NCBI GenBank assembly: GCA_964354185.1
Contig: CAYGZE010000001.1
Span: forward strand, 1,939-65,938
Origin: an uncultured Anaerolineales bacterium
GTDB taxonomy: Bacteria > Planctomycetota > Phycisphaerae > FEN-1346
Length of the DNA: 64,000 bases
Direction of reading: 5' to 3'
The position numbers and the translations under genes are program-made. Of this stretch, positions 10,575-37,978 are shown piece after piece. Numbering within the stretch: the stretch's first letter is position 1; each line of letters begins with the position of its first letter. The notes under the pieces are model-generated. The model made no database searches, was not told the DNA's origin, and worked only from the letters and a program-made list of their open reading frames with translations.

Positions 10575-10604
10575 ATTATCGAAGGGGCGGCGGACAACTT
10601 GAGG
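10575..10604 (-). promoter_or_regulatory. putative sigma-28 (FliA) class-III promoter of fliC
   Basis: Minus-strand sequence TCAAGTTG-N11-TTCGATAA (consensus TAAAGTTT-N11-GCCGATAA). It lies ~150 nt upstream of the flagellin ATG and has the same spacing as the flgM promoter. Confidence 0.4.
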
Positions 10605-10725
10605 ACTTTCCGGGAAGGGGGGCGCCGCGGCCCCAGCCGGAGGCGTCGGCCGGGCCTGGCGCGAAGGCCTCTGGCCGCCGGCTGGAGACCTCTAAGGAAC
10701 AAGGGGGAAGGGGGCGGGAAGTGCC

Positions 10726-10847
10726 GTAAGTCCTTGTGGCAAAAGAACCTAGGTGATGTGCGCCGGGGCCGCCGGGCCCGCCCGGGGGGTGCCTGACCGC
10801 CTCAGGCCGACCCCTGGGGAGCGATTCTGACTATAAGTCCTTGTGGC
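10726..10847. repeat. two copies of an AT-rich direct repeat (CCGTAAGTCCTTGTGGC / ATAAGTCCTTGTGGC) 107 bp apart in the flgM-fliC intergenic region
   Basis: Exact 14-mer TAAGTCCTTGTGGC at 10727-10740 and 10834-10847. Each is followed by a related ~20-nt tail (aAAaGAaCcTAGGtG / tcAaGgAcaTAGGaG). A third copy of CCGTAAGTCCTT sits at 37905-37916, next to the fliK sigma-54 promoter. Confidence 0.4.
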
Positions 10848-10920
10848 TCAAGGACATAGGAGGAGTTTGCGTCGCCGGTGGTGCCAGCGGTGCCTGCCGC
10901 TCACATCCCGGCGCAAAGGA

Positions 10921-10947
10921 AACGGCCCATGGCTTGCACGGGCCGTT
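10921..10947 (-). terminator. possible terminator hairpin downstream of flgM
   Basis: AACGGCCC-atggcttgcac-GGGCCGTT (8-bp stem) 56 nt after the flgM stop. On the minus strand it is followed by TTTCCTTTGCGCC, a weak T-tract. Confidence 0.3.
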
Positions 10948-11002
10948 CCTTCCGGGCACTTGCACGGCGAACGCTGGATGTAGGGGTAGCCTCCTCGCTT
11001 GC

Positions 11003-11287
11003 CTAGATGCCGTCCCGGAGAAGCCTTTCCGCGGCCCTGACGGCGGCCTCGGGGGTGTCCAGCGAGCCGGAGGCGAGGAGACGCTTGGCCTCCGCGACGG
11101 CGTCGGGCCGGACCTCGGGGGCCTCGGCCGCACGGCGGGCATAGGGCTCGATGTCAGGTCCTTGCGGGCCCGGCGCTTGGGTGGGCCTGCCGGTCGCGTT
11201 TGCGGGCTGATCCGGACGGACCAGGTTCCTGGCGCCTCCGGGGACATGCAGGGGGTCAACGCCGTGGGTTCCCTCGATCTGCATCAT
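11003..11287 (-). CDS. flgM: anti-sigma-28 factor FlgM
   Basis: 94 aa; a disordered N-terminus and the C-terminal VRPDAVAEAKRLLASGSLDTPEAAVRAAERLL match the FlgM sigma-28-binding helices. It has its own sigma-28 promoter and is adjacent to fliC. Confidence 0.6.
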   Translation of the reverse strand: MMQIEGTHGVDPLHVPGGARNLVRPDQPANATGRPTQAPGPQGPDIEPYARRAAEAPEVRPDAVAEAKRLLASGSLDTPEAAVRAAERLLRDGI

Positions 11288-11319
11288 GTCGCTCCGCTGC
11301 TAAGGTTCTCCCCTAAGTA

Positions 11320-11346
11320 TTGTCAGCATCCGCGCGCGGAACTTTA
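11320..11346 (-). promoter_or_regulatory. putative sigma-28 (FliA) promoter of flgM
   Basis: Minus-strand TAAAGTTC-N11-GCTGACAA ~35 nt upstream of the flgM start. This is a near-consensus class-III flagellar promoter. Confidence 0.5.
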
Positions 11347-11406
11347 GGAAAAATCCGGGCGGCGGGCGGTTTTTCCGCTGCCGCGTCTCACGGGTTCCGG
11401 CGCGGC

Positions 11407-12054
11407 TCAACGGGCGGCCCCCCCGTCGGGCAGGGTCGCGGCCGCCTCCTGGGCGACGAACTTCTGAAAAGCCCTCGAACTGACCAGGGCGATCCGCCAT
11501 TGGAGCGGGCTGTCGCCGCTCTCGACCGAGCGGCGGTAGTAGTCCTCAATGCGCTGCTGGGTCCGGCGGTCGCTGGTGTCCCACGTGTGGTCGACGGCCC
11601 ACAGGAGCCGGCCGTCCCTGAGGTCCACGAGCCGCAGGTACAGCCCCCCCTGCAAGTGCGGGTAGGGCCGAAAGGCCGTGACGGTGCCGACGAGGGCGGC
11701 GTCGCAGCGGAAGGCCTTGCGCATGTCGGCCAGTTCCCGAAGGGTGATCGCCTGGCCCGAGGGGCGGCACCAGGGACCGCCGGTGTCGGTGGTGGCCGGG
11801 ACGAGGCTGACCTGGAAGAGGCGTCGCCCCTGGAGGGCCTGGAGGAGTTCCGTCGTCAGGCCCTCCTCGACGCCCGGGAAGTCGGTGGCGTTGGCGAGGG
11901 GGACGAAGGCGACGCGGTTGAGCCGCAGGACCCCCCCGGCCGGGTCGAGGTAGTGCCCGACGCGCAGGCGTGCCTGGTTGGACCAGCAGCCGGCCGTGAG
12001 GACGGCCGCCAAGCACGCGGCCAGGATCAGGATGGGGCTACGGCGTGGAGTCAC
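11407..12054 (-). CDS. lipoprotein, possibly a FlgP/LPP20-like flagellar outer-membrane lipoprotein
   Basis: 215 aa; signal peptide with lipobox LTAG|C (MTPRRSPILILAACLAAVLTAGCWS). Globular ~190-aa domain. It overlaps the upstream lipoprotein gene by 17 nt and sits between fliA and flgM. The FlgP assignment rests on size, lipidation and context only. Confidence 0.6.
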   Translation of the reverse strand: MTPRRSPILILAACLAAVLTAGCWSNQARLRVGHYLDPAGGVLRLNRVAFVPLANATDFPGVEEGLTTELLQALQGRRLFQVSLVPATTDTGGPWCRPSGQAITLRELADMRKAFRCDAALVGTVTAFRPYPHLQGGLYLRLVDLRDGRLLWAVDHTWDTSDRRTQQRIEDYYRRSVESGDSPLQWRIALVSSRAFQKFVAQEAAATLPDGGAAR

Positions 12055-12688
12055 TGGCGGATTCCTTCTTGTCCGGTTGAGGGGCCGTGGCGGCTCTCCT
12101 CGGGGGTGTGGTCGGCTCGACGCTGGTCGTGGGCGCGGCGGCCTTCTTCAGCGCGGCGGGCTCGGCGGCGGCGACGGGCGCGGCAGCGGGCGTGACCGAG
12201 GCGGCCTCGGGCTGGGGCGTCTCGCCGCCCAGGAGCCGCAGGACCTTGCCGAGCGCCTCCAGTTCAGCCAGGTGGGCCCGGCGCATCTCGTCGCGGTATC
12301 CGAGGACGTCGGCTTTCCACCGGTTGTTCTCCTGGCGGACCTCGATCAGGAGGGCATTGGCCGCCTCCAGTTCACTGGTGGCCTTGGCGAGGTCGGCCTT
12401 GGCGGCGTCGAGTTGCTGCTGGAAGGAGCGGTTCTCATCGAGGAGTTTGCGGCCCCGCTGCTGCTCCTGGGACAGGTCCTCGACCGTGCGGGCGTACTTC
12501 TCGGACCACAAGAGGGCGCTCTCGACGGCGGGGGCCTTGTCGGGCGGGGTGTCCTGGGCGACGGCGCCCTTCGAGAGGTACTCGGTGCCGGCACCCGGCC
12601 CTTCCACGAGGACACTGGGTTTCCAGGCGGTCTGGCAACCTGCGGAGACCATCGCCAGGGCCAGGATCAACGAGACGGCGCGGCGCAT
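12038..12688 (-). CDS. coiled-coil lipoprotein (hypothetical; flagellar-associated by context)
   Basis: 216 aa; lipobox MVSAG|C. Central coiled coil (QQQLDAAKADLAKATSELEAANALLIEVRQENNRWK). C-terminal Pro/Ala/Thr-rich linker. Translationally coupled to the downstream lipoprotein gene. Confidence 0.6.
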   Translation of the reverse strand: MRRAVSLILALAMVSAGCQTAWKPSVLVEGPGAGTEYLSKGAVAQDTPPDKAPAVESALLWSEKYARTVEDLSQEQQRGRKLLDENRSFQQQLDAAKADLAKATSELEAANALLIEVRQENNRWKADVLGYRDEMRRAHLAELEALGKVLRLLGGETPQPEAASVTPAAAPVAAAEPAALKKAAAPTTSVEPTTPPRRAATAPQPDKKESASDSTP

Positions 12689-12713
12689 GACTGGACCTCC
12701 TTCTTGACCTGAT

Positions 12714-13010
12714 TCATGGGTTTGCTTTCCGAGCGGGCGGCTCCGGGCCGCCCGAGCCTGACTGCTGGCCGTCAGGCTGGCCGATCGGGGCCGGATCCTG
12801 CCACCGGCACTCGATGTGGGTCACGTTGCCGCAGGGGCACCGCACTTCGAGGACCACGCAGTCGGCGTGCCGCTCGACGACGCGGACCGCGGTCTCGCCC
12901 CCGGCCGCAGGGGCCGAGGCGCGGTGCATCCCTGGGGCCGCGCCGATGCGGCGGGGCGCGGCCGACTTGACGCGGCTCTTCTTCAGGATGCGTGTCAGTG
13001 CGGCACTCAT
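12714..13010 (-). CDS. small Cys-cluster protein (possible zinc-ribbon), hypothetical
   Basis: 98 aa with DCVVLEVRCPCGNVTHIEC (C-x7-C-x-C-x6-C). It lies in the same orientation between fliA and the lipoprotein genes. No recognisable family, so coding status is uncertain. Confidence 0.35.
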   Translation of the reverse strand: MSAALTRILKKSRVKSAAPRRIGAAPGMHRASAPAAGGETAVRVVERHADCVVLEVRCPCGNVTHIECRWQDPAPIGQPDGQQSGSGGPEPPARKANP

Positions 13011-13295
13011 TCGCCTGGTTCCTCCCGTCGGTCCCCGGCAAGGCTCACGCCAGGGCGTCGAGCGCGTGTCCCTCCCCCTCGGGGGCCCCCGCGGGCGGCG
13101 GGGGGCTCTCGCCGCGCGCCTCCCCCGGACCGGCCGGCGGTGACGTCGCGGTGGCAGGCCGCGCGGCGGGGCGTCGCGGCCTGGCGTCTCGCGGGCGCCG
13201 GTGCGGCGTTCGCCTGTCGCGCTGGGGGACCCGGCCGAGGCCGGCCACCTCGCGCGGGCCGTCGGGTCCGACCACGGAGTCGTTTTCGGGGGTGC

Positions 13296-14078
13296 TCATG
13301 GGGCGCTCCTCAATCGCAGGGACAACTTCATCAGGGCGCTGGCGTGCACCTGGCTGACGCGGGATTCGGTGATCTCGAGAACCTCGGCGACCTCCTTCAT
13401 GGTCAGGTCGTGGTCATAGTAGAGGAGGAGGAGTTTGCGTTCGCGTTCCGGGAGTTCGCGGATCGCCCGGGTCATCCGGTCGACCATCTCGCGGCGCTGG
13501 ACCTCGGTCTCGGGGGTGGGCGTGGTGTCGGCCGGGACGAGGGGCCCGAGCGTGGGCCCGTCCTCGCTCAGGCCGTGGATCGACAGGAAGTGCTGGCAGC
13601 GGGCCTCTTCGAGCGTCCGGTAGTACTTGTCCAGGGGGACGCCGGCCTCGTCGGCTAGTTGCTCGTCGGTGGGGACGCGGCCGTGGGCGGCCAGGAGGCG
13701 CCCGTAGGCGCGGCGGATCTTGCGGACCAGGCGGTAGACGTTCGCCGACACCCACGACCGGTTCCGCAACTCGTCGATCACGGCCCCGCGGATGCGGATG
13801 TAGGCGTAGGTCTTGAACTCCGCATGTTTCGATTCGTCGTAGGCGCGGGCGGCCTTGACGAGCCCGACCGTGCCGGCCGAGATGAGGTCGTCCTCGTCCC
13901 GGGCCCGCCCGAGCGTGGCGACGACCTTCTGCACGACGTGCCGCACCAGAGGGAGGTGCGCCACGATCCACTGGTCCTCGGCGGTGCGGCGGGACTGCTG
14001 GGCGTAGGCGCGGCTGGCCTTCGCCTGGAGGGCTTTCTGCGGCGGCTTGTCGACGGCGTTTTGCGTGTCCGTTCTCAA
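13296..14078 (-). CDS. fliA: flagellar sigma factor FliA (sigma-28)
   Basis: 260 aa; sigma-70 region 2 (DLISAGTVGLVKAARAYDESKHAEFKTYAYIRIRGAVIDELR), region 3 and region 4 (LTMKEVAEVLEITESRVSQVHASALMKL). It lies downstream of flhA, and two sigma-28-type promoters occur in the window. Confidence 0.88.
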   Translation of the reverse strand: MRTDTQNAVDKPPQKALQAKASRAYAQQSRRTAEDQWIVAHLPLVRHVVQKVVATLGRARDEDDLISAGTVGLVKAARAYDESKHAEFKTYAYIRIRGAVIDELRNRSWVSANVYRLVRKIRRAYGRLLAAHGRVPTDEQLADEAGVPLDKYYRTLEEARCQHFLSIHGLSEDGPTLGPLVPADTTPTPETEVQRREMVDRMTRAIRELPERERKLLLLYYDHDLTMKEVAEVLEITESRVSQVHASALMKLSLRLRSAP

Positions 14079-14299
14079 CGCCCTGGTCCTTCATGCCCCC
14101 CCTTGGGACCGCCACGATGCAGCACGTCTGCCGTCACGGAGACCAGCACTCCTGCCGCCACCCGCGCCACGAAGTAGAGGACCGCGGCGCCGACGAGGGC
14201 CCGGAGGCTGCACGCGGCCGGCGGCACGCCGCTCGCGGTGCCGACGATCGCCAGCACCAGGAGGCCGACGACCGCGACCCGGATGGCGGCACGGTTCAT
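14075..14299 (-). CDS. small 2-TM membrane protein (hypothetical) between flhA and fliA
   Basis: 74 aa (MNRAAIRVAVVGLLVLAIVGTASG...AVLYFVARVAAGVLVSV). Its stop overlaps the fliA start (ATGA). It occupies the position where flhF/flhG usually sit. Coding status is uncertain. Confidence 0.35.
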   Translation of the reverse strand: MNRAAIRVAVVGLLVLAIVGTASGVPPAACSLRALVGAAVLYFVARVAAGVLVSVTADVLHRGGPKGGHEGPGR

Positions 14300-14330
14300 G
14301 GCTACCTCTCACCCCTTCCGTCCGAATCCG

Positions 14331-16490
14331 TCAGGTTGCGGCCAGGGCCGGCGCGGGCCCGGTCACTGCCCTCGCCGTCTGGCGGTCGCCGTTGGCGGCC
14401 GCCAGGGAGACCGTGGCGACCGATTCGACCTTCGTGCCGACGGCCACTTCGTCGTAGGAGAGGACCGGGAGTTGCGGCAGTTGGCGCGACAGCAGGGCGG
14501 CCAAGTGGGGCCGGAGGCGGTAGTCCGCCAGAAGCACGGCCTTGTCGTGGCCCTCGTTCATGGCGTTCTGCCAGGCGCGGCTGATGCGGCGCGACAGGTC
14601 GAGCGCGCGGTCGGGCGCCAGCGAGAGCGCCTCGGCCTGACCCTCCTGGGCCAGGGCCGCGCGCAGTTCGTACTCGAGCGCGGGCTCCAGGACGATGGCG
14701 GTCAGCCGCCCCGCAGCGTCGGTGTGCTGCTCGGTGATCGCGCGGATCAGGGCCTTCCGGACGAGTTCCGTGAGGACGGCGGGGTCCTTGGTCCGGGCGG
14801 CGTGATCGCCCAGCGCCTCGAGAATCTGGGGAAGGTTCCGGAGGGGGATGCCGTCCCGCAGCAGGTTCTGGAGGACGCGGTGGAGGAGGCCGACGGGGAC
14901 GGCATCGCCCACGGCGCCGCTGACGAGCGCGGGCTGCTTCTGGCGGAGGCGGTCCACGAGGTTCTGGACGTCGTCGCGCGAGAGAATCTCGTGGGCGTGG
15001 CGGCGGAGAACCTCCGACAGGTGGGTCGCCAGGACCGACTCGGGGTCGACGACCGTGTAGCCGGCCAACTCGGCCTCGGGCTTCTGGTCGGCGGTGATCC
15101 AGACGGCCGGCAGTTGGAAAACGGGCTCGCGCGTGGCCTGGCCGACGATGGGTTTCTGGACGGTGCCGGGGTCCATGGCGAGGAAGCGGTCGGGTTCGAG
15201 GACGCCGGAGGCCACGGCGTGGCCGTGCACGCGGATCTCGTAGGCGTTCGGTTCGAGGGCGACGTTGTCGCGCAGGCGGATCAGGGGCAGGACGATCCCC
15301 CACTCGGACGCGAACCGCCGCCGCAAGGGCCCGATCCGGTGGAAGACGCTGTCTTTGCGCCGCGGGTCGACGGTCTTGATCAGGCGCGGGCCGACGAAGA
15401 TGGCGATCCGGTCGACGTCGAGGAGTTCCTCGACGCGGCCCTGGTCGGGCTCGGGGGCGGCCTTGGCGGGCTCGGCCTTGGCGGCGGCCTCCTTCTCGGC
15501 GCGGCCGAGGATCCTGGCCACGGCGCCCGCGCCCAGGGCGAGCACGATGAAGGGCGCCCTGGGGAACCCCGGGACGAACGCCATCGCGCCCAGGAGGAGG
15601 GCGGCGATGCCGACGGGGCGGCTCCGGGCCAGCATCTGACGGAACAGGGCCTGGCTCAGGTTCTCCTTGCTCGAGGTCTTCGTGATCAGGAAGCCGGCGC
15701 TCGTGGAGATGATGAGGGCGGGGATCTGGCTGACCAGACCGTCGCCGATCGCCAGGATGGAGTAGGTCTCGACGCTCTTCTGGATCGTGAGGCCGCGCGT
15801 CAGGCCGATGGCGATGCCGCCGACGAGGTTGACGGCGGTGATGACGAGCCCGGCGATGGCGTCGCCGCGGATGAACTTCGAGGCGCCGTCCATGGCGCCG
15901 TAGAACTCGCTCTCGCGGGCGATCTTCTCGCGGCGCTGGCGGGCCTCGTCCTCGCCGACGAGGCCCGCGTTCAGGTCGGCGTCGATCGCCATCTGCTTGC
16001 CCGGCATGGCGTCGAGGTTGAAGCGGGCGGCCACTTCGCTGATCCGCTCGGCGCCCTTGGTGATCACGACGAACTGGATGATCACCAGGATGAGGAACAC
16101 CACCAGGCCGATTTCGAGACTGCCGCCCGCGACCACGTGGCCGAACGTCCGAATGATGGCCCCCGCGTCCGCCTGGCTCAGGATCAGCCGCGTCGACGCC
16201 ACGTTCAGCGCCAGCCGGAACAAGGTCACGAACAGGAGGAGCGACGGGAACGTCGACAGTTCGATCGACTCGCACGTCGACAGGACCGTCACCATGGTGC
16301 CGACGGCGATGGCGATGCTGCACGCCAAGAGGAGGTCCATCAGGAGCGTGGGCAGGGGGATGAGCAACGTGGCCAGGATCATGGCCAGGCCGGCGGCGAA
16401 CAGGAGGTCGTTATGGGCCAGGAGCCGCTTCAGGCCCGACGGGGCCGCGGCGAAGAGCGCGGGGGGGGCGTCGTCTTTGCGGGTCGTCAT
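14331..16490 (-). CDS. flhA: flagellar export apparatus protein FlhA
   Basis: 719 aa; conserved TM region (LLFAAGLAMILATLLIPLPTLLMDLLLACSIAIAVGTMV...FVTLFRLALNVASTRLIL), the FHIPEP motif region (GAMDGASKFIRGDAIAGLVIT) and a cytoplasmic ring domain. Confidence 0.95.
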   Translation of the reverse strand: MTTRKDDAPPALFAAAPSGLKRLLAHNDLLFAAGLAMILATLLIPLPTLLMDLLLACSIAIAVGTMVTVLSTCESIELSTFPSLLLFVTLFRLALNVASTRLILSQADAGAIIRTFGHVVAGGSLEIGLVVFLILVIIQFVVITKGAERISEVAARFNLDAMPGKQMAIDADLNAGLVGEDEARQRREKIARESEFYGAMDGASKFIRGDAIAGLVITAVNLVGGIAIGLTRGLTIQKSVETYSILAIGDGLVSQIPALIISTSAGFLITKTSSKENLSQALFRQMLARSRPVGIAALLLGAMAFVPGFPRAPFIVLALGAGAVARILGRAEKEAAAKAEPAKAAPEPDQGRVEELLDVDRIAIFVGPRLIKTVDPRRKDSVFHRIGPLRRRFASEWGIVLPLIRLRDNVALEPNAYEIRVHGHAVASGVLEPDRFLAMDPGTVQKPIVGQATREPVFQLPAVWITADQKPEAELAGYTVVDPESVLATHLSEVLRRHAHEILSRDDVQNLVDRLRQKQPALVSGAVGDAVPVGLLHRVLQNLLRDGIPLRNLPQILEALGDHAARTKDPAVLTELVRKALIRAITEQHTDAAGRLTAIVLEPALEYELRAALAQEGQAEALSLAPDRALDLSRRISRAWQNAMNEGHDKAVLLADYRLRPHLAALLSRQLPQLPVLSYDEVAVGTKVESVATVSLAAANGDRQTARAVTGPAPALAAT

Positions 16491-20032: not shown

Positions 20033-20047
20033 GCACATGGCGTGCCA
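20033..20047 (-). promoter_or_regulatory. putative internal sigma-54 promoter for fliOPQR-flhBA
   Basis: Minus-strand TGGCAC-gccat-GTGCC (GG at -24 and GC at -12 with correct spacing) in the 166-bp fliN-fliO gap, ~50 nt upstream of the fliO start. Confidence 0.4.
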
Positions 20048-20152
20048 ACCGAAAACCGCCCTGGCGCTAGCGCCAAGGCGGTTCCTGGGTCGGCCTGGAC
20101 AGGCGAAAATCAGACGCCGCGCCCGAAAAGTTGACGCAGCCGGGCCGGCGGG

Positions 20153-22128: not shown

Positions 22129-22890
22129 TTACTCCTTTGTCGTGGCTTCCGTCACCGCAATGAGGACATAGACCCGCCCGGGCCCCTTGCCGGCCGCCAG
22201 GTGCCACCGTCCGCCCGACCCGGCGCCCGAGAAGTCGACCCGGGCGCCTCGGTGCCGCGCGTTCGCGTCGATGGCCGCGGCAAGGAACGTGCCGGCGGCC
22301 TTGGCGCGCTCGGCCGACAGGAGCCACTGTCCCGTGGGATCGGGCTCGTCGGGCGCCAGGCCGATGACCTGGAGGACGGTCGTGTGCCCGCCGGCCGGTG
22401 GCTTGAGGCAGGTCACCAGGTCGAGCAGGAACTCCTTCGCCTGGGCGTCGAGCGTCGCGTCGGATGGCTGGAACGCGATCGGCGTGGTGAGGAGGCGCGG
22501 CGGGGGGCCGTCGTCATTCGTCGCTTTCGTCTCGGCCAGGTGGCGCAGGTCGTCGAACACCTTGCGGATCTTCTCGTCCTCGGTGTCGATGACGCGCTCC
22601 TGGTCGAGGTTCTCAGGGTCCTCCTCCATCGGATACTTGGTGCGGATGTTTCCGAAATCGACCCTCTCGTCCTGGCCTGCGAGCAAGTCGGGAATCCCCA
22701 GGTAGTCGATGGCGCGGCGGAAGCCGCCCCGCAGCGTAAGAAACTTGGAGGACGCGTCCGGGTGGGTGGCCATGGCCTGGAGCATGATGAAGAAGGATAG
22801 GAGCAGGGTGGTCATGTCGGTGAACGACACGATCCAGGACGGGAGTCCACCCCCACTTTCACCGCTGGGTCTCCTCCGCAGAACGTTCAC
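22129..22890 (-). CDS. second MotB-like stator protein (MotB paralogue; OmpA-like C-terminal domain)
   Basis: GTG start overlapping the stop of the first motB (GTGA). N-terminal MotB plug/TM (PSWIVSFTDMTTLLLSFFIMLQ) plus a C-terminal OmpA-like peptidoglycan-binding region. It is distinct from, and only distantly similar to, the upstream motB. Confidence 0.65.
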   Translation of the reverse strand: MNVLRRRPSGESGGGLPSWIVSFTDMTTLLLSFFIMLQAMATHPDASSKFLTLRGGFRRAIDYLGIPDLLAGQDERVDFGNIRTKYPMEEDPENLDQERVIDTEDEKIRKVFDDLRHLAETKATNDDGPPPRLLTTPIAFQPSDATLDAQAKEFLLDLVTCLKPPAGGHTTVLQVIGLAPDEPDPTGQWLLSAERAKAAGTFLAAAIDANARHRGARVDFSGAGSGGRWHLAAGKGPGRVYVLIAVTEATTKE

Positions 22891-23567
22891 GGGCACACCT
22901 TTGGGTTCAGGATCGCCAGGGTGACGACCGGCTCGACTTCGGCGCGGGAGCCGCTTTCCCCGACGGCCGTGGAGATACTGAACCGGCCGGACTCGATCCG
23001 CTCGGCCTCGGTCAGGTGCCGGACGATGGCCAGGGCCCTCTGGAGCGCGCGGTCCTCGGCATCCGCGGTCGACGGCCCGGCGGCCACGGTCTCGCAGACC
23101 ACGACCTGGCTGGGGACCAGGCGCAGGTAGGCCGCCGCCTCGGCGAGGAGGGTTTTGCCCTGGGGCGTGACCTGGGCGCCCTGGCCCCAGAAGAGCACGT
23201 CGCTCGGGATGGTGAGGACGCGGCGGTCGCAGTAGGCGTCGGCGCTGCGCACGGGCTCGGGTTTCCGGGGTCGGTAGGTGGGGTCGAGCCGGTCGAAGGT
23301 CGGGACCTCCTGGCCCTCCTCGGTCCGGTCCACCACGGTCGGGGCCCGATCCACGGGCGACTCGAGGGCGAATCGGCGCCTGGCCATGACGGACGGGTCG
23401 GACGGCCCGTCGAACATGCCGACCAGGCGCCCCCCGGCCTCGGTGTCGAACGAGGAGAACGCCAGGAGCAGGACGAAGAATGTCAAGAGCAGGGTCATGC
23501 AGTCGCTGAACGTGACCATCCACTCGTTGCACGAGGACTCCGGCGGGGGCGGTCTTCGGGCTGGCAT
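22887..23567 (-). CDS. motB: flagellar stator protein MotB
   Basis: 226 aa; NEWMVTFSDCMTLLLTFFVLLLAF is the canonical MotB N-terminus and TM, followed by a C-terminal OmpA-like domain. It lies immediately downstream of motA (1-nt gap). Confidence 0.82.
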   Translation of the reverse strand: MPARRPPPPESSCNEWMVTFSDCMTLLLTFFVLLLAFSSFDTEAGGRLVGMFDGPSDPSVMARRRFALESPVDRAPTVVDRTEEGQEVPTFDRLDPTYRPRKPEPVRSADAYCDRRVLTIPSDVLFWGQGAQVTPQGKTLLAEAAAYLRLVPSQVVVCETVAAGPSTADAEDRALQRALAIVRHLTEAERIESGRFSISTAVGESGSRAEVEPVVTLAILNPKVCP

Positions 23568-23568
23568 G

Positions 23569-30787: not shown

Positions 30788-31144
30788 TCAGGCCTGGATC
30801 GCCAGTTCCATCTGCCGGTACGTGCGGTTCAGGACCCGCATGTACGTCTTGTAGAGGACGGAGTTCCTGACGAGGTCGGCCACTTCGCGATCGAGTTCGA
30901 CGTCGTTGCCGTGCTCGTTGAGCGGGTCGGTGGCGGGCCGGAGGATGCGGGCGGCCACCTCCCGGGGGTCGATGGGCTTGCCGGCATCCATGGCGTCGGC
31001 GAAGACCTCCTCGAACGGGAGGATGGTGCGGCGGTAACCGGGCGTCGCCATGTTGGCGATGTTGTTGGCGACGGCGGCCTGGCGCAGGGTCGTCGCGCGG
31101 AGGCCGGCCTCCAGGTATTCGATTATGCCGGTGCCTTGAGCCAT
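30788..31144 (-). CDS. flgB: flagellar basal-body rod protein FlgB
   Basis: 118 aa; LRQAAVANNIANMATPGYRR and the C-terminal NSVLYKTYMRVLNRTYRQMELAIQ. Its start lies inside the 3' end of the upstream regulator gene (22-nt overlap). Confidence 0.85.
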   Translation of the reverse strand: MAQGTGIIEYLEAGLRATTLRQAAVANNIANMATPGYRRTILPFEEVFADAMDAGKPIDPREVAARILRPATDPLNEHGNDVELDREVADLVRNSVLYKTYMRVLNRTYRQMELAIQA

Positions 31145-32568
31145 AGTCGGTCTCCCGTGGCGTCCGCGTCGCCCGCTTGGCGATAGCGGCGCAGTTTCTC
31201 GCGCAGGGTCCGGTCCGTGATGCCGAGGAGTTTCGCGGCGCGGGCCTGGTGGCTGCCGGTGACGCGCAGGGCCTTGAGGATCGTGTGGCGCTCGACGTCC
31301 CTCAGGCGGAGGCTTGGGCCGGCGTCCGTGCCCCCCGACCTCTCGGCCGGTCCGACCTCGGCACGGCCCGTGGCGGTGACGGGCAGGCAGGCTTCCAGTT
31401 CCGCCCGAAGCCACGGGGCCCCGGCCAGCGAGAGCACGTCGCTCGACCCGAGGACCAAGGCGGTGCGCACGGCGCTGCGCAGTTGCCGCACGTTGCCCGG
31501 CCAGTCGTACCGCTGGAAGAGGTCCATCATGTCGGGGTCGAGCGCCGTGATCGAGCGCCGCACCTCCCTCGCATATTCGTTGACGAAGTACCACGTGAGC
31601 AGGGGGATGTCCTCCGGGCGCTGGCGCAGGGGAGGCACCGCCACGAGCATCCCCGCCAGCCGGTAGTACAGGTCGCCCCGGAAGCGTCCCCGGCGGACAA
31701 GGCCGGGAAGGTCGCGGTTCGTCGTACTGATGACCCGGACGTTGACGCGGAGGCTCTTCGACCCGCCGACCCGCTCGAAGTCCTGCTGGTCCAGGACGCG
31801 GAGCAACTCGGCCTGGAGCCGCAGGCCCGTCTCCGTCACCTCGTCCAGCAGGAGGGTCCCCCCGTCGGCCAGTTCGAAGCGGCCCTTGCGCTCGATGACC
31901 GCGCCCGTGAACGCGCCGCGTTCGTGGCCAAAGAGTTCGCTCTCCAGGAGCGAGTCGCTCAGGGCGGCGCAGTTGACGCGGACGTAGGGCCCGCCTGCGC
32001 GGCGGCTGCCCTGGTGGATGAGGTTGGCGACCAGTTCCTTGCCGGTCCCGCTCTCGCCCAGGATGACGATGGGCAGCGACGTCTGGGCGGCCTTCCGGGC
32101 GAGAGTGAGGGCCTGGAGGAGGGCGGGGCTTCGGCCGACGATGCGGCAGGGGTGGCGGCCGTCGGGGACGACGGCGGCTGCCAGCGGCACCGTCCGGTTC
32201 GGCAGGAGCGCGTCGAGCAGTTCCTCCACGGTCCGGCGCTTCAGGGGCTGGGTAAGGAAGTCCTCGCACCCCGCGCGGAGGGCCCGGACGACCGTTGGGA
32301 CGGCCGCCTCGCCGGAGATCATAACGACGGGCAGTTCGGGCTCGCGGCGTTTGACCTCCTCGACGACGGCCAGGCCGCCCCCGCCGGCCGTCTCGAGTTC
32401 GACGAAGACGAGGTCCCACCGCTCCTGCGGGATGTGGTCGCCGGCCGCCTTGACGTCGCGGGCGACGGTGCCGCGAATCCCGCGGGCCGCGAGCACCTCC
32501 AGCAGGAGGCGCGTCGTCGGCGTGTTGCAGCCGACGAGGAGCACGTTCGGATGGACCGAATCCGTCAT
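31123..32568 (-). CDS. sigma-54-dependent response regulator (NtrC/FlrC/FlbD-type bacterial enhancer-binding protein)
   Basis: 481 aa; RBS AAGGAAAGG. Receiver-like N-domain (DLVFVELET, VVMISGE). AAA+ sigma-54 activator core (ILGESGTGKELVANLIH, GAFTG, ESELFGHERGAFTG, GGTLLLDEV, RVISTTNRDL, DLYYRLAGMLVAVPPLRQRPEDIP). C-terminal Fis-type HTH (QARAAKLLGITDRTLREKLRRY). Confidence 0.9.
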   Translation of the reverse strand: MTDSVHPNVLLVGCNTPTTRLLLEVLAARGIRGTVARDVKAAGDHIPQERWDLVFVELETAGGGGLAVVEEVKRREPELPVVMISGEAAVPTVVRALRAGCEDFLTQPLKRRTVEELLDALLPNRTVPLAAAVVPDGRHPCRIVGRSPALLQALTLARKAAQTSLPIVILGESGTGKELVANLIHQGSRRAGGPYVRVNCAALSDSLLESELFGHERGAFTGAVIERKGRFELADGGTLLLDEVTETGLRLQAELLRVLDQQDFERVGGSKSLRVNVRVISTTNRDLPGLVRRGRFRGDLYYRLAGMLVAVPPLRQRPEDIPLLTWYFVNEYAREVRRSITALDPDMMDLFQRYDWPGNVRQLRSAVRTALVLGSSDVLSLAGAPWLRAELEACLPVTATGRAEVGPAERSGGTDAGPSLRLRDVERHTILKALRVTGSHQARAAKLLGITDRTLREKLRRYRQAGDADATGDRLWLKAPA

Positions 32569-33338
32569 GGCGCCTTTCCTTGGGTGGCCGGCGGCGTTGT
32601 CGTCAGGATGTTCGGCTTCCCCCTGGGCGTGGCCGGCGTCGCCGGCGGTGTGGTCGGCGCCGGCGGCGCAGTCGTCGGCGACGGCTCCTCGGTCTCGGTC
32701 GGCCGGGCCGCGAGCCGCCCCTCCGCCAGCGCGCGGTACGTCTTGGCGATCTGGGCCCAGGGCGAGTCGGGGTGGTCCTTCAGGATCTGGTCGTAGATCG
32801 CGATGCCGGCGGCGGGGTCGCTCTCGCGCTGGCAGTTGGCCATCTGGAACAGGGCCCAGGCCTTGGCCTTCCCGTTCCCGTCCGCCTTGAGGGCTGTCTC
32901 GTAGAAGGCGTAGGCCTCGCGGTAGTGGCCGGCCTGGAACAGGGCGTCGGCCAGCGCGAGCGGGTCGGCGATGCGGTCGGGGGGCAGCCGCCGGAGCCGC
33001 TCGAGGTCTTCGGGCGTCACGATGGGAACGTCGGACCTGGGTCGGGGCGGCGCGACGTCGACGGGGGTTGTCGGCGACGCGGCCGCGCCCGTCGAATCCG
33101 GCGCCGCGCTGTCGCGCGGGCTGGGCTTGGGCCGTGCCTGGAGGGAGTGGATGTGCTGGATGGTCGCCTCGAGTTCGCTGGCGGCCGATTCGCCTATCGG
33201 GGGGGTCACGAAGGACCGCAGGAGTTCGAGGCGGTTTTGCCGGGCCCGGGTCACCACGTCGTCGGCAGGGGCAGCCGCCGCGAGCGACGCCGCGGCAAGG
33301 CTTGCCAGCCCCAGGGCCAGTCGAGGCAGGTGTCTCAT
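32565..33338 (-). CDS. secreted TPR-repeat protein (flagellar operon member)
   Basis: 257 aa; signal peptide MRHLPRLALGLASLAAASLAAAAPADD. TPR-like motifs (ALFQAGHYREAYAFYETALKADGNGKAKAWALFQMANCQRESDPAAGIAIYDQILKDHPDSPWAQ). Pro/Thr-rich tail. ATGA overlaps on both sides. Confidence 0.7.
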   Translation of the reverse strand: MRHLPRLALGLASLAAASLAAAAPADDVVTRARQNRLELLRSFVTPPIGESAASELEATIQHIHSLQARPKPSPRDSAAPDSTGAAASPTTPVDVAPPRPRSDVPIVTPEDLERLRRLPPDRIADPLALADALFQAGHYREAYAFYETALKADGNGKAKAWALFQMANCQRESDPAAGIAIYDQILKDHPDSPWAQIAKTYRALAEGRLAARPTETEEPSPTTAPPAPTTPPATPATPRGKPNILTTTPPATQGKAP

Positions 33339-35656
33339 GGGGTCGCCGCTCCTTCCGCCGGGGGCAGCACGCCCGACAGGGCCAGGGACGCTCGGTCGTA
33401 GTCGCGCATCCGCAGGTAGGCCGTCCCCAGCACCTCGAACACGCGCCGCCGCAGGTCATCCGAGAGCGGCAGCGTCAGCAGGTGCCGGCACACGCTGGCC
33501 GCGTGAGACGCCTGCCCGGCCTTGAGGCAGACGTCGGCCAGTTCGCAGGCGGCCTCGCCGGCGAGGGGCCCGGTCCCGGCTTCCGTGAAGACGGCCGACA
33601 GCCGCCGCCGGGCCTCCTCGAGTTCGCCCAGGTCGACGTGGCACCGGGCCAGTTCGAGGACCATGCGGGTTCGGCCCTCGGGGGAGGCGGCCGATCCGAG
33701 TTCGGCCTTCAGGAGGCTCTTGGCCTTCTCGGCCAGCCCGATGGTCCGCAGGATCTCGGCGCGCAGAAGAATGGCCTCGTCGGCCTTCTCGGGGGACGTG
33801 GTGCTGCGGTCGAGGCCCTCGACGACGGTGACGGCGGCCGCCAACTCGTCCTGCTTCACCAGCGTGCGCGCCAGTTCCAGGAGGATGTCGGTCCGGAAGG
33901 CCGGCCCCGGCTTGAACCCCAGGCCGGTCCGCAGGGCGGTCCGGGCCTCGTCGAGCCGGCCCCGGGCGCCTTCGCTCCGGCCAAGCAGCAGGGCGGCCTG
34001 GGCCGGCTCGTCGCCGGTCTGGTCGGCAGCGAGGCTGAGGTAGCGGTTCAGCCACTCGGCGGCCCCGGCGTAGTCTCCCTTGCGGTAGAGGCACGTGCCC
34101 GCGCCGAGGCAGGCGCCGAGGCGGCTCGGCCCCGACAGTTCGAGACCGTACAGTTTCTTGAACGTTGCGACGGCCTCGTCATAGAGGCCGGCCTCCATGG
34201 TGGCCTTCCCCAGCCTGAGGTAGACCTCGTCGGTCGCGGAGAAGTCGGGATGGCGGTTGAGGAGTTCGAGCAGTTCGTCGCGGGCGCCGGCGTAGTCGGT
34301 CAGGTCGATCCGGGTCGCGGCGCTGCGCAGCCTGGCCAGGGGCGCCAGTGGCGAATGGGGAAACCGTTCGGCCAGGAGGTCAAACTCGGTCATCGCGCCG
34401 GGTTTGTCGTTGCGGCACTCGCACAAGAGGCCCAGCGCGAAGTGGCCGTAGGCGAACTGCCCGGCCTCGGACGTCAGCAGGAAGAGCCGGCGCCAGGCCG
34501 ATCCCGCCTCGCGGACCAGGATGTCCTGGAGGTCGGACGTTGAGGCGCACGTCGCCGGATCGTGGATCACGGCCCGCGTTCCGCTCAGCCGGGCCAGGAG
34601 CCCCACCGCGCCGCAGGCGACCTCGATGACCCGCTGGTCGGTGAGGTTCTCGCCGTAGAGGAACAGGGGGCGGGCCCGCGCCGCCGCATCCGGGCCCTGC
34701 CACGCGATCTCGATCCCGGCCGCACCGGCCAATCGGTTCAAGAGTTCCTCGACCGGGGCGCCGGCCGACGTGACCGTCCACCGCGGGCCCGTCCTGGCGT
34801 TGGCAACCACGGCGAGTTTGGGGGCGAGGATCGCCCCTGCCAGTTCGTGCGTCCCGGCGGCGAGGAGCCCGCGGAGTTCCTCTTCGTTGCGGAGGTTGCT
34901 GAACGGGTCCAGATCGATGCCCGCAGTGGCCGGCAGGTCCCGTTCCCGGTTGAACAAGGTCAGGGCCTTGCGCGAGAGCGACTCCGCCACCAGCACGTCA
35001 CACGCCGACTGGATGCTCCCGGTGCCTGGAACCAGGGTGAGCACAGCCAGCGCCTTGTAGGCCTGCATCCGGGCCGTCAGGTACCGTCCCTCGCGCAGGT
35101 CCAGAAGGGCCGTCTGGAAAGACACCATCCCGCGGATGACGGGGGAGCGGCTCTTCGCGAGCGACGCCAGTTCCGTCCGGGCCTCGGCGCTGTGTCCCGA
35201 TCGCAGTTGGGCCTGGGCCAGGCGCAGCACCAGGAAGTCCACCACGAGGTCCGCGTCCTCCTCGCCGGCCTCGGACCGCGTGGTCGCCAACAGTTGCCGG
35301 TAGCAGTCGAGGGCCGCGGCGCTGTCCCCCTCGGCGCGGGCCTTCTCGGCCACCGACAAGGAGACGCCGGTCGGCGGCTTCGGGCCGGGCTGGTCCGGGA
35401 TCTGGTCGATTGCCGCCTTCGCGGGCGCCGCTGGCGGGGAAGGGGGCGGCGCCGTCTCATCGGCCTCCGGCCAGAAGACGGCCGCGACGGAGACGGCCAC
35501 GACCAGCGCGCCCGCCGCGAGCAGCATGACCCGGCGCGCCGTGTGGGACTTGGCGTCCGCCAGCAGGGCCGTGGCCAGCCCGTCGTTCACCATCGCGGAC
35601 GGGTCCGGTGCCGGAGGCGTCCCGTCACTGGCGGCCGATGTGGGCTCGTCTGCCAT
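33335..35656 (-). CDS. membrane-anchored multi-TPR protein (773 aa), first gene of the sigma-54-driven flagellar superoperon
   Basis: One N-terminal TM (RRVMLLAAGALVVAVSVAAVFW) followed by ~700 aa of TPR-like helical repeats (ALDCYRQLL..., EAVATFKKLYGL..., YAGAAEWLNRYLSLA..., LGELEEARRRLSAVF...). Its stop overlaps the next start (ATGA). Confidence 0.75.
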   Translation of the reverse strand: MADEPTSAASDGTPPAPDPSAMVNDGLATALLADAKSHTARRVMLLAAGALVVAVSVAAVFWPEADETAPPPSPPAAPAKAAIDQIPDQPGPKPPTGVSLSVAEKARAEGDSAAALDCYRQLLATTRSEAGEEDADLVVDFLVLRLAQAQLRSGHSAEARTELASLAKSRSPVIRGMVSFQTALLDLREGRYLTARMQAYKALAVLTLVPGTGSIQSACDVLVAESLSRKALTLFNRERDLPATAGIDLDPFSNLRNEEELRGLLAAGTHELAGAILAPKLAVVANARTGPRWTVTSAGAPVEELLNRLAGAAGIEIAWQGPDAAARARPLFLYGENLTDQRVIEVACGAVGLLARLSGTRAVIHDPATCASTSDLQDILVREAGSAWRRLFLLTSEAGQFAYGHFALGLLCECRNDKPGAMTEFDLLAERFPHSPLAPLARLRSAATRIDLTDYAGARDELLELLNRHPDFSATDEVYLRLGKATMEAGLYDEAVATFKKLYGLELSGPSRLGACLGAGTCLYRKGDYAGAAEWLNRYLSLAADQTGDEPAQAALLLGRSEGARGRLDEARTALRTGLGFKPGPAFRTDILLELARTLVKQDELAAAVTVVEGLDRSTTSPEKADEAILLRAEILRTIGLAEKAKSLLKAELGSAASPEGRTRMVLELARCHVDLGELEEARRRLSAVFTEAGTGPLAGEAACELADVCLKAGQASHAASVCRHLLTLPLSDDLRRRVFEVLGTAYLRMRDYDRASLALSGVLPPAEGAATP

Positions 35657-35791
35657 GGGTCCTGTCCGCGTTCTGGGGCCCGGCCGAAGGGTCTCCTCGG
35701 CCGGCGCATACCCTCGCGCAGGGGGCCGTCTGGCCCGGAACGGGCGTCCCCCCGGCGCCCGTTCCGCGCACCCCTGTGCGCAGGGACCGTC

Positions 35792-35807
35792 TGCAAGGGG
35801 CGTGCCA
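35792..35807 (-). promoter_or_regulatory. sigma-54 (RpoN) promoter of the flagellar superoperon
   Basis: Minus-strand reads TGGCAC-gcccc-TTGCA, an exact match to the -24/-12 consensus, ~135 nt upstream of the 33335-35656 gene start. An adjacent inverted repeat GCGCAC-ccct-GTGCGC lies at 35766-35781. Confidence 0.6.
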
Positions 35808-36003
35808 ACCGGGCGAGGCTGCGGCCCGACGGCCCTCGCGGGGCTGGGAAGGGCGAAACGGGCATGGCGGCCACCGGCGCCGGCGCGGCGTGGTCGTCAG
35901 GTTTTCGCGCGGCCGTACGGTTTTCAAGCGCGGGTGACGGCGGCCGGAGACGCGGGGGGCAGCGGGGCGGCGCGCGGCACAGCGGGGCGCCGCTTCGGAC
36001 GGA

Positions 36004-37449
36004 TTATGAGCCGGCTTCGTGGAAGTGCGGGATCCGCTCGCGGGTGCAGGCGGTCACGTCAACGAGGCCCGCCCCCTCCGGGATCTTGATCTTGTACCGC
36101 TTGAGTTTGGCGTGAAGCGTGGCGCGGGTGATGCCCAGGAGGGCGGCCGCCCGCGTCCGCTGCCAACCCGTCTCCTGGAGGGCGCGCGTGATGAAGAGCC
36201 GCTCGGCTGCCTCGAGCGAGAACTCGTCCTGTAGCAGACGGGCGCCGCTCTCCTCGGACGGCAGCAGGGCCTCGTCCTCGATCAGCAGGTCTTCGGGGCC
36301 GATCTCGTCGCTGCGGGCGAGGATCAGGGCCCGCTCGACGACGTTGCGCAGTTCCCGGACGTTCCCCGGCCACGCGTGCCGCGCCAGGCGCTCGCGGGCG
36401 GCCTCGGTCAGGCGGAGCGCTCGCCCGCGGCACGAAGGGGCAACGACTTCGATGAAGTACTCCACGAGCAGCGGGATGTCCTCGCGGCGCTCCGGCGTGC
36501 GAAGCGGGGGAAGGGTGATCGGGAACACGGCCAGGCGGTAGTACAGGTCCTGTCGGAAACGGCCCTCCCGTGCCGCGCCACGCAGGTCGCGGTTGCTCGA
36601 CGCGATGATGGTGGCCCGACACGGGATGCTCTCGGTGCCCCCGACCTTGCGGAACCGTCGCTCCTGGAGGACGCGCAGCAGTTTCGCCTGGAGTTCCGGC
36701 GGCATCTCGCTGATCTCGTCGAGGAAGAGCGTGCCAGACCCCGCCACCTCGAACAGCCCCTTCTTCTCGCCGTCGGCACCTGTGAAGGCCCCCTTCACGT
36801 AGCCGAACAACTCGCTCTCCAGCAGGTTGGCGGTCAGCGTGGCGCAGTTGACCGCCACGAACGTGTCGGGGTGCTCGCGGCGGAGGGTGTGGACCGCGCG
36901 GGCGGCCAGTTCCTTGCCGGTTCCGGTCTCGCCGACGATCAGGACGGGGTTGCAGGGGCTCTCGGCCACCCGTCGGATCGTCTCGAGGGTCCGCCGCATC
37001 CCCTCGCTCCGCCCGACCATCGGAACGCCCCGAGGGCAGGCCGGCTCGAAGAAGCGGTCCCACCGGGCCCGGATGTCAGCGGTTGCCGCCAGTGCCTGAA
37101 TCCGCTCCAGGCCGACCTTGTCGAGCGGCACCCTCAGACACGCGCTGGCCCCCTCGCGCAGGAAGAGCGCCTCCCGCCTGGCGTCCTGGTCACCCGAGAG
37201 GACCACCACGGGCACCCCCGGGGCTACCTCGCGTACCCTCTCGAGGGCAACCAGCCCCTCGGCTGTCTCGATGGTGTCGCCGATGACTACCAGGTCGGTG
37301 GTCCCCTCCGCGGCCGCCCGAGCGGCCTCGGCCGCCGTGCCGGCCGGGACGCGCGTGCCGCCCAAGTGCCGCAACGGGCAGGAGTCGGCGGCAGGCGCCG
37401 CTCCCAGGACGACAATGCTCCCAAGCCTTACCGGCGAACGTCCCCCCAT
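36004..37449 (-). CDS. sigma-54-dependent transcriptional activator with an atypical receiver-like N-domain (FleQ/FlrA-like candidate master regulator)
   Basis: Start MGGRSPVRLGSIVVLG at 37449. AAA+ sigma-54 activator motifs (IVGETGTGKELAARAVH, GAFTGA, ESELFGYVKGAFTG, GTLFLDEI, RFRQDLYYRLAVFPITLPPLRTPERREDIP). C-terminal HTH (RTRAAALLGITRATLHAKLKRYKI). The N-domain lacks the canonical acidic pocket. Confidence 0.85.
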   Translation of the reverse strand: MGGRSPVRLGSIVVLGAAPAADSCPLRHLGGTRVPAGTAAEAARAAAEGTTDLVVIGDTIETAEGLVALERVREVAPGVPVVVLSGDQDARREALFLREGASACLRVPLDKVGLERIQALAATADIRARWDRFFEPACPRGVPMVGRSEGMRRTLETIRRVAESPCNPVLIVGETGTGKELAARAVHTLRREHPDTFVAVNCATLTANLLESELFGYVKGAFTGADGEKKGLFEVAGSGTLFLDEISEMPPELQAKLLRVLQERRFRKVGGTESIPCRATIIASSNRDLRGAAREGRFRQDLYYRLAVFPITLPPLRTPERREDIPLLVEYFIEVVAPSCRGRALRLTEAARERLARHAWPGNVRELRNVVERALILARSDEIGPEDLLIEDEALLPSEESGARLLQDEFSLEAAERLFITRALQETGWQRTRAAALLGITRATLHAKLKRYKIKIPEGAGLVDVTACTRERIPHFHEAGS

Positions 37450-37962
37450 GAAAGCCGCTCCCTTTCCAGGATGTGCACGTCTCGTCCGTGCCTTGCCGAG
37501 TCCTCGGGTTGGAGGTGTCGCGAGCCTGTCCGCCCACGTATGGCGTGTCCGGTGACTGTCAGCGATGTATCGGCTCTGGACCTCATACGCAGCCACTGGC
37601 GGTCCGGAAGTGTTGATTTACACGCGTTCTCGGCCTGACCGGGTGTGCATCTTTAGAAGAACTTATCGGACGGTCAATAAAAGTGGGGGCAGGCCGCCGA
37701 GGCAACCGGCCGCGCGCCGCCTGGTGGCGCTGGCGCCACCAATCCGGGTGCGGGTGCGACAGCCTCAACCGGCGGGCGGGACCGAGCCGGTGCGGCACCG
37801 GTCGGCCCCCGGTGCGGAGGATTCTACCGATCGTCGGAGGTTTCTTCCGCTTGGCCGGGCGGGCCGACGGGCGAGACGCCGTGGCTGACGCTGAGATGCG
37901 CCGCCCGTAAGTCCTTTAAAAGCAAGGAGATAAGCCACACTGCGTCTTCCATTGGGCAGGGG

Positions 37963-37978
37963 TGGCACGGTTCTTGCT
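37963..37978 (+). promoter_or_regulatory. sigma-54 promoter of the fliK-flgDE...flgKL operon
   Basis: Plus-strand TGGCAC-ggttc-TTGCT exactly matches TGGCAC-N5-TTGCW, ~38 nt upstream of the fliK GTG start (RBS TGAGGAGG). The AT-rich motif CCGTAAGTCCTTTAAAAGCAAGGAG lies 30-60 nt further upstream, a plausible IHF or activator site. Confidence 0.6.

Follow-up and report, generated by a model that had tools for sequence, protein, structure and literature searches.

How does a planctomycete order the transcription of its flagellar genes? The question is raised by contig CAYGZE010000001.1 of an uncultured bacterium represented by a metagenome-assembled genome (MAG), of which we analyzed a 64-kb stretch (the window; 71% G+C). 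A complete flagellar gene cluster fills the central 45 kb of the window, and within it we find three sigma-54-type and two sigma-28-type promoter motifs, two sigma-54 activators of the enhancer-binding protein (EBP) class, and a sigma-28 gene accompanied by a tentative anti-sigma factor gene. These parts point to a tiered programme in which sigma-54-dependent transcription precedes sigma-28-dependent transcription, a reading to which we assign a probability of roughly 70%. Hierarchies of this kind are textbook knowledge in Vibrio, Pseudomonas, Legionella, Campylobacter, Helicobacter and Caulobacter, and the flagellar hierarchy of Vibrio cholerae reportedly comprises four tiers, in work attributed to Prouty et al. 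in 2001. What the window presents is a familiar type of flagellar control, well supported and useful as a map rather than surprising, seen in a new phylum.

The sigma-54 consensus TGGCAC-N5-TTGC has two exact matches in the 64 kb, where 0.02 would be expected, and loosening the pattern to TGGCAC-N6-TGC adds one more site on the minus strand. The three motifs, scored with a position weight matrix (PWM) for the lineage, and the transcription units that follow them are listed here; TPR denotes genes for tetratricopeptide repeat proteins, and x an open reading frame (ORF) without assignment.

35793..35807, minus strand: P1, sigma-54 (-24/-12) promoter TGGCACGCCCCTTGC, exact consensus, 20.0 bits.
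Minus strand: P1 operon, TPR-TPR-EBP2-flgBC-fliEFGHIJ-x-motA-motB-motB2-fliLMN.
37963..37977, plus strand: P2, sigma-54 promoter TGGCACGGTTCTTGC, exact consensus, 18.4 bits.
Plus strand: P2 operon, fliK-flgD-flgE-...-flgFG-flgAHI-flgJ-flgN-like-flgKL.
20033..20047, minus strand: P3, sigma-54 promoter TGGCACGCCATGTGC, one mismatch (GTGC), 23.5 bits, the highest PWM score in the window.
Minus strand: P3 unit, fliOPQR-flhBA-orf74-fliA and four conserved ORFs without assignment.

The spacing between the GG and GC dinucleotides is exactly 10 nt in all three motifs, each of which is intergenic, lies on the coding strand and is followed at 39-137 nt by a Shine-Dalgarno sequence and a start codon. The distance is 126-137 nt from P1 to the ATG of the 773-aa TPR gene, ~39 nt from P2 to the GTG of fliK (Shine-Dalgarno GAGGAGG), and ~47 nt from P3 to the ATG of fliO. 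From the TPR gene to the end of the unit that contains fliA, the fliN-fliO gap that houses P3 (166 nt) is the only one to exceed 40 nt, so that the description of this gap in the initial annotation as the only sizeable one holds. Two regulatory genes are carried by these units with no intervening gap: EBP2 lies downstream of P1 and fliA downstream of P3. Across the whole window, the lineage matrix, derived from the conserved sites, recovers just three sigma-54 sites (18-24 bits), the next best match scoring below 12 bits. Two other candidates, at 51569-51583 and in fliL at 22280, were dropped because they fall below that 12-bit level; the former, TGGCATGCGGTTTGC on the plus strand, is a one-mismatch sigma-54-like sequence 80 nt inside the TPR ORF that follows flgL.

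For comparison, we assembled FliF-centred loci from seven contigs (FliF 53-70% identical) and FlhA-centred loci from four, and left out a set of paralogues (L001-L080) that share at most 48% identity with EBP1, belong to other phyla and carry the generic WPGNVREL pattern. Homologues of EBP1, FliF and FlhA come almost entirely from metagenomic Planctomycetota, the named sources being labelled Phycisphaerae. Gene order is identical in the related loci, with EBP1 and fliK residing elsewhere in two of them (L085 and L088). When the relatives were scanned for TGGCAC-N5-TTGC with at most one mismatch, the GG and GC being required, each of the seven orthologous loci proved to have an equivalent of P1 ~100 nt ahead of the large TPR gene, and all five loci in which fliK is adjacent had an equivalent of P2 upstream of fliK. 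The P3 equivalent occupies the fliN-fliO gap in 7/7 loci, with two mismatches in L088, where GG-N10-GC is kept; the unusual NTGC of its -12 region is itself conserved (consensus TGGCACRCCRTNTGC). Correct-strand one-mismatch sites are thus present in 18 of the 19 orthologous gaps, against ~7 background matches per 300 kb on both strands, and the intergenic DNA around them has diverged at these levels of FliF identity.

The late end of the programme is marked by a sigma factor gene and by the two genes that it would serve:

13296..14078, minus strand: fliA (sigma-28), the last recognisable regulator gene of the P3 unit, with Pfam regions 2, 3 and 4.
11318..11347, minus strand: sigma-28-type promoter CTAAAGTTC-N11-GCTGACAATA before the FlgM-like gene, found in 5/5 loci and in the distant locus L094.
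11003..11287, minus strand: FlgM-like ORF of 94 aa, a tentative anti-sigma-28 factor by size and position.
10574..10603, minus strand: sigma-28-type promoter CTCAAGTTG-N11-TTCGATAATG before the flagellin gene, found in 5/5 loci and in L094.
9601-10428, minus strand: flagellin gene, downstream of the sigma-28-type promoter.

FliA exceeds the curated cut-offs of two models (TIGR02479 FliA_WhiG, 222.6 versus 189.6; NF005413, 209.9 versus 201). Set against the sigma-28 consensus TAAA-N15-GCCGATAA, the bipartite motifs of both late genes (TAAAGTTC-N11-GCTGACAA for flgM and TCAAGTTG-N11-TTCGATAA for fliC) display the canonical spacing. Alignment of the five loci yields a consensus of CT(A/T/C)AAGT-N13-(C/T)CGATAATGAAC ~145 nt before the flagellin ATG, and of CT(A/T)A(A/T)G-N14-CGAnAAT ~55 nt before the ATG of the FlgM-like gene. 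The lineage sigma-28 matrix finds these two sites and no others in the window (28-31 bits, the flagellin promoter scoring 30.7), the next match, which is not a promoter, reaching 11.6. The FlgM-like ORF matches Pfam FlgM (PF04316) weakly, at 15.9 bits (gathering threshold 25; E 0.015), and its size, position and presence are kept in L090-L094.

The most distant locus, L094, in which FliF is 42% identical and the G+C content 58%, is labelled Anaerohalosphaeraceae. Perfect sigma-54 motifs precede flgB and fliK there, a weaker one precedes fliO, and sigma-28 motifs precede the flagellin and FlgM-like genes. The TPR and activator genes are missing from this locus and fliA lies directly behind fliK (6701-8758; the operon that holds them diverges from flgB), an arrangement in which fliA would come under the hook-operon sigma-54 promoter, giving other wiring of the same parts.

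We consider it highly probable that all five motifs of the window are functional promoters of the classes named. The initial annotation had reported sigma-54 elements in front of three units and sigma-28 elements before flgM and fliC. All are present and recur in up to eight related genomes; the sigma-54 elements are intergenic and conserved, with the end coordinates of two of them having been one base off, and the sigma-28 elements recur at the same positions in 5/5 loci each. The weight-matrix scan that it had suggested, run here on the 64-kb window, returned these three sigma-54 and two sigma-28 sites and no more.

Two sigma-54 activators are encoded at the positions at which NtrC-family activators had been placed:

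36004..37449, minus strand: EBP1, with an N-terminal pseudo-receiver, an AAA+ domain (GAFTGA) and a helix-turn-helix (HTH) domain of the HTH_8 type; candidate master regulator.
31123..32568, minus strand: EBP2, with a receiver (REC) domain, an AAA+ domain (GAFTGA) and HTH_8, encoded within the P1 operon, with translational coupling to the TPR genes.

Both proteins match PF00158 Sigma54_activat (213.5 and 216.1 bits) and the Fis-type HTH PF02954 (45.3 and 45.1 bits), and both contain GAFTGA, the AAA lid and a Walker A motif (GETGTGKE or GESGTGKE). Their nearest solved relatives include NtrC1/NtrC4, ZraR, NifA, FleQ, FlrA and FlrC. The Response_reg match of EBP1 (21.8 bits) falls under the cut-off, and the acidic pair, the phospho-accepting aspartate and the lysine are missing in 26/26 aligned orthologues; the degenerate receiver ascribed to this protein is therefore borne out, whereas its FleQ/FlrA-like label finds no counterpart in the Pfam FleQ domain PF06490, to which EBP1 has no match at E <= 0.001.

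EBP2 matches Response_reg over threshold. Alignment with NtrC4, NtrC and CheY reveals Gly-Cys in place of the acidic pair, glutamate in place of the phospho-accepting aspartate, and glutamine in place of the lysine. The same state occurs in the closest relatives, L081 and L083 (GC, Glu, and Gln/Glu for Lys), whereas more distant orthologues keep the aspartate, and L085, L086 and L089 the lysine as well. Substitution of glutamate for aspartate at the acceptor site of the receiver is a classical activating change in NtrC. Judged from these residues, neither activator looks phosphorylatable in this genome, which fits with a window in which no kinase gene was seen: none of the window genes scanned encodes a domain of histidine kinase, FlhF, FlhG or FlhDC, nor one of HisKA/HATPase_c, SRP54-type or ParA/MinD-type, as had been claimed for kinase, flhF, flhG and flhDC. 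Because EBP2 appears non-phosphorylatable, it is closer to FlbD than to FlrC or FlgR. This refines its earlier description as an FlrC/FlbD-like protein inside the operon, a location that stands, but EBP2 remains well below the cut-off of 750 of the curated FlbD model NF050807 (319.7 bits; EBP1, 279.1). The two activators score 263.6 and 236.1 bits against the FlgR model NF049963 (cut-off 750), and neither scores high enough for the curated models of FlbD, FlgR, NtrC and other named activators. By analogy, EBP1 and EBP2 may function like FleQ/FlrA and FlbD, respectively, while lying outside those families by the tests applied.

When aligned at the -24 element, the promoter regions display two kinds of conserved upstream element, both candidate enhancers, which the initial annotation did not include; two further conserved sequences are listed with them:

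35896..35925, plus strand: type A of P1, a pair of GTnnnnTTTTC units at 19-bp spacing, running opposite to the promoter and ~90-120 nt upstream of -24.
20105..20135, minus strand: type A of P3, GTCAACTTTTC-N9-GTCTGATTTTC, in promoter orientation, ~55-90 nt upstream of -24.
37815..37849, plus strand: type B of P2, palindromes CGGAGGATTCTACCG and CGGAGGTTTCTTCCG at a spacing of exactly 20 bp, ~115-150 nt upstream of -24.
20051..20086, minus strand: conserved inverted repeat AGGAACCGCC...GGCGGTTTTC, immediately adjoining the -24 element of P3.
37627..37671, minus strand: conserved motif upstream of EBP1, GTCCGATAA-N7-CTAAAG-N16-GCCGAGAA, in 5/6 aligned loci.

The GTnnnnTTTTC unit has five copies in the window (both strands), four of which make up the P1 and P3 pairs, and the unit spacing of 19-20 bp is kept in eight genomes. 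Type B units conform to the consensus CGGAAGAnTCTTCCG, and an AT-rich stretch separates the palindrome pair from P2; L081, L083 and L086 have pairs at the identical 20-bp spacing, L087 has one perfect copy, and L094 has a related palindrome. With related genomes counted as independent, the pentamer TTTTC/GAAAA occurs 17 times in the 150 nt upstream of P1 (1.0 expected in 8 loci; p ~1e-15) and 18 times upstream of P3 (1.0 expected in 8 loci; p ~6e-17), and GGAAG/CTTCC is enriched upstream of P2 only (15 versus 2.4 expected; p ~4e-8). The pentamer count across loci gives no TTTTC/GAAAA enrichment upstream of P2. Two mutually exclusive element classes fit two activators with different targets, and the independence of orientation, the fixed helical spacing and the mutual exclusivity are together what would be expected of enhancers for such a pair.

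The inverted repeat next to P3 is conserved in sequence with almost no covariation (RNAalifold), and could represent a third TTTTC unit whose partner is inverted; alternatively, it may be a hairpin at the end of the fliN transcript. The motif upstream of EBP1 resembles sigma-28 half-sites with a spacer 2 nt longer than at fliC and flgM; a sigma-70-type scan for an EBP1 promoter found none, and the motif, as the sole candidate, may be a class I promoter or an operator.

How might these parts work together? At the top tier, EBP1, the pseudo-receiver activator, would be made from a promoter in the EBP1-fliK intergenic region. In the second tier, EBP1 would bind the GTnnnnTTTTC pairs at P1 and P3 and remodel the sigma-54 holoenzyme, leading to expression of the MS-ring, C-ring, export-gate and stator genes and, with them, of EBP2 (via P1) and fliA (via P3). 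In the third tier, EBP2 would bind the paired type B palindromes upstream of P2 and, with the AT-rich stretch acting as a bend between enhancer and promoter, activate the hook, distal-rod, ring and junction genes (fliK...flgL). In the fourth, FliA would transcribe the FlgM-like and flagellin genes from the sigma-28-type promoters, with FlgM presumably restraining FliA. Both the succession of tiers and the matching of activators to promoters are inferred; that EBP1 pairs specifically with type A and EBP2 with type B seems to us somewhat probable. The four-tier scheme advanced in the initial annotation is upheld insofar as the tiered sigma-54 and sigma-28 parts are conserved, but its models' kinase partner and FlhF/FlhG have no counterpart in the scanned window genes. 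A more specific version is plausible though short of probable: a kinase-less cascade of two activators, each with its own enhancer code (type A early, type B for the hook), in which EBP2 became independent of phosphorylation recently, in the clade of this window. Were that so, the assembly checkpoint would be sensed by some non-kinase mechanism.

Several observations weigh against the tiered reading or against its details. The rpoN gene is not in the 64-kb window; two intact activators imply that it is present somewhere in the genome. The assignment of EBP1 to type A and of EBP2 to type B derives solely from the logic of the hierarchy, and a rule of adjacency would instead pair EBP1 with the divergent P2. 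The enrichment p-values overstate significance because related genomes are treated as independent. Fis-type HTH dimers usually bind inverted repeats, and since type A consists of direct repeats, its sites could be architectural. No terminator is predicted in the 347-nt spacer between EBP1 and P1, so read-through could feed the P1 operon. Internal sigma-70-type promoters may also be present.

The alternative that best withstands the evidence reverses the wiring, such that EBP1 acts through type B on the divergent P2, and perhaps on itself, and EBP2 acts through type A on P1 and P3, in a loop of positive autoregulation that read-through from EBP1 would prime. Activator genes often adjoin their target promoter, the type B elements do sit in the EBP1-fliK intergenic region, and EBP1 and fliK move together, both lying away from the P1 neighbourhood in L085 and L088; the EBP1-P1 spacer, with no predicted terminator, would supply the priming read-through. 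Such wiring would, however, place hook and ring genes before, or independent of, the MS-ring and export apparatus, unlike every characterized flagellar hierarchy. In addition, L094 keeps both element types with neither activator gene nearby, indicating that adjacency is not required. We therefore judge the reversed arrangement unlikely.

It is less likely still that type A represents bending or architectural sites (IHF/HU-like) or remnants of sigma-28-like promoters, with the enhancers lying elsewhere or being unneeded. In our own reading, the P3 copy, TCAACTTTT-N11-GTCTGATTT, loosely resembles the local sigma-28 consensus and in part the IHF consensus WATCAANNNNTTR, and its units, as noted, are direct rather than inverted repeats. 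Against this reading stand the P1 copy, which runs opposite to its operon, so that a promoter there would face backwards into EBP1; the lineage sigma-28 matrix, which does not score type A; and the 19-20 bp spacing kept in eight genomes.

A terminator-like hairpin of the fliN operon, with fliO...fliA read through from P1, is a very improbable explanation of P3. The sequence GGCACgccatGTGCC does form a small palindrome followed by TTCTGTT and appears terminator-like in a simple scan, but L081 and L083 do not keep the palindrome (TGGCACACCGTATGCT), whereas all seven loci keep the GG-N10-GC register, and P3 both has the top PWM score of the window and shares type A with P1. This candidate was rejected because the palindrome is not conserved. 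Finally, chance matches or phylogenetic inertia, with the operons on housekeeping promoters, are scarcely credible: a 71% G+C genome does favour GGC/GCC-rich words, and weaker one-mismatch matches occur inside coding DNA at 22280 and 51569, but two exact matches were observed where 0.02 are expected, 18/19 orthologous gaps carry a correct-strand site where one-mismatch matches number ~7 per 300 kb, conservation reaches a genome with 42% FliF identity and 58% GC, and the cluster has two dedicated sigma-54 activator genes of its own.

The tiered sigma-54/sigma-28 programme that we favour most resembles the FlrA/FlrBC/FliA and FleQ/FleSR/FliA systems of Vibrio cholerae and Pseudomonas aeruginosa. 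As in those systems, there is a sigma-54 activator, here the candidate master regulator EBP1, whose N-terminal domain appears unable to accept a phosphate. The MS-ring, switch and export operons have sigma-54 promoters and also contain fliA and the gene of the second activator; hook and basal-body genes fall to that second sigma-54 activator, a role here predicted for EBP2; and flagellin and flgM have sigma-28 promoters. The differences are that no gene for an FlrB/FleS-type kinase lies beside EBP2, whose receiver is devoid of the acidic pair, the aspartate and the lysine; that flhF and flhG do not occur between flhA and fliA; that motA and motB belong to the early sigma-54 operon and not to the sigma-28 class; and that EBP1 is without the Pfam FleQ domain and two envelope TPR proteins head the early operon. 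The best reading, as far as genes and motifs can tell, is a Vibrio/Pseudomonas logic minus the kinase step and minus flhF/flhG, with motAB in the early operon.

FlbD of Caulobacter crescentus is a sigma-54 activator controlled by FliX and not by a known kinase. EBP2 shares with it a location inside an early flagellar operon, the hook and late basal-body genes as predicted targets, the lack of a partner kinase, and palindromic candidate enhancer elements ~100 nt from the promoter. In contrast to FlbD, both activators score far below the curated model NF050807, no FliX-like protein was detected in the window, and the early genes carry sigma-54 promoters, whereas those of Caulobacter use CtrA and a sigma-70-type promoter. 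The FlgSR-RpoN-FliA system of Campylobacter and Helicobacter likewise has its rod and hook genes transcribed with sigma-54 and its flagellin gene with sigma-28, but it relies on a single FlgS-dependent activator without a DNA-binding domain, whereas the window encodes two HTH_8 activators, has conserved upstream elements and no kinase, and yields no protein satisfying the FlgR model NF049963.

The most original elements of this map are predictions from sequence: that both activators work without a kinase, and that there are two enhancer codes. EBP2, which appears to have lost its phospho-acceptor recently, would be a natural case of a checkpoint regulator changing its control. More broadly, the cluster offers a concrete regulatory map for flagellar genes of Planctomycetota, comprising promoters, candidate enhancers, activators and a sigma/anti-sigma pair, and, judging from it, the tiered sigma-54 plus sigma-28 logic of Proteobacteria and Campylobacterota may also be ancestral to a class of the PVC (Planctomycetes-Verrucomicrobia-Chlamydiae) group. 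Although the source is an uncultured MAG, its parts are short enough for synthesis and trial in E. coli. We found no experimental or locus-level account of planctomycete flagellar regulation in the literature, in keeping with the earlier statement that the subject is essentially unstudied in this phylum. The sole related work is a 2025 pan-bacterial weight-matrix survey in PLoS One (PMC12316311), which predicts sigma-54 promoters on motility genes in the class Planctomycetia; it presents no locus-level architecture, activators, enhancers or sigma-28 tier, and treats Phycisphaerae only for chaperone genes.

Domain annotation of the window agrees with the gene content and order given in the initial annotation. 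Reading the minus strand down the coordinates, EBP1 is followed by the 347-nt gap, TPR1, TPR2, EBP2, flgB, flgC, fliE, fliF, fliG, fliH, fliI, a fliJ-like gene, an ORF without assignment, motA, two motB genes, fliL, fliM and fliN. Beyond the 166-nt gap come fliO, fliP, fliQ, fliR, flhB, flhA, a 74-aa ORF and fliA, then four conserved ORFs, a 119-nt gap, the 94-aa FlgM-like ORF, a 574-nt spacer, flagellin, fliD and fliS. The plus strand carries, from 38016, fliK, flgD, flgE, two ORFs without assignment, flgF/flgG, flgA, flgH, flgI, rod-binding flgJ, an FlgN-like ORF, flgK, flgL and a TPR gene. A search against Rfam gave no match in the window.

TPR1 (773 aa, 33335-35656, minus strand) has an N-terminal membrane anchor and TPR2 (257 aa, 32565-33338, minus strand) a signal peptide; in seven loci their genes show translational coupling to EBP2, and L094 does not have them. 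A role for the two proteins as regulators of EBP2, by analogy with FliX or FleN, was set aside as a principal interpretation, because the anchor and the signal peptide mark them as envelope proteins, more likely components of the motor. They may form a periplasmic motor scaffold.

Around the flagellin gene, a conserved hairpin, GTGCGrGCyAsyGGGGCnyGCAC, lies ~35 nt before the ATG (10465-10487, minus strand; 5/5 loci) and is a candidate site of translational control. The 9-mer CCACAAGGA, which resembles the CsrA-binding motif ACARGGAUG, has four copies in the window, three of them in the flgM-flagellin spacer and leader (10555-10563, 10731-10739 and 10838-10846, minus strand); it is not kept in related loci, and neither csrA nor fliW was seen in the window.

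Two further arrangements recur in all related loci. A single motA is followed by two tandem MotB paralogues (22887-23567 and ~22129-22890, minus strand), L094 included. Between fliA and the FlgM-like gene, four ORFs without an assigned family (13045-13299, 12714-13010, 12038-12688 and 11407-12054, minus strand), one of them encoding a coiled-coil protein, are kept in the same order and at the same size.

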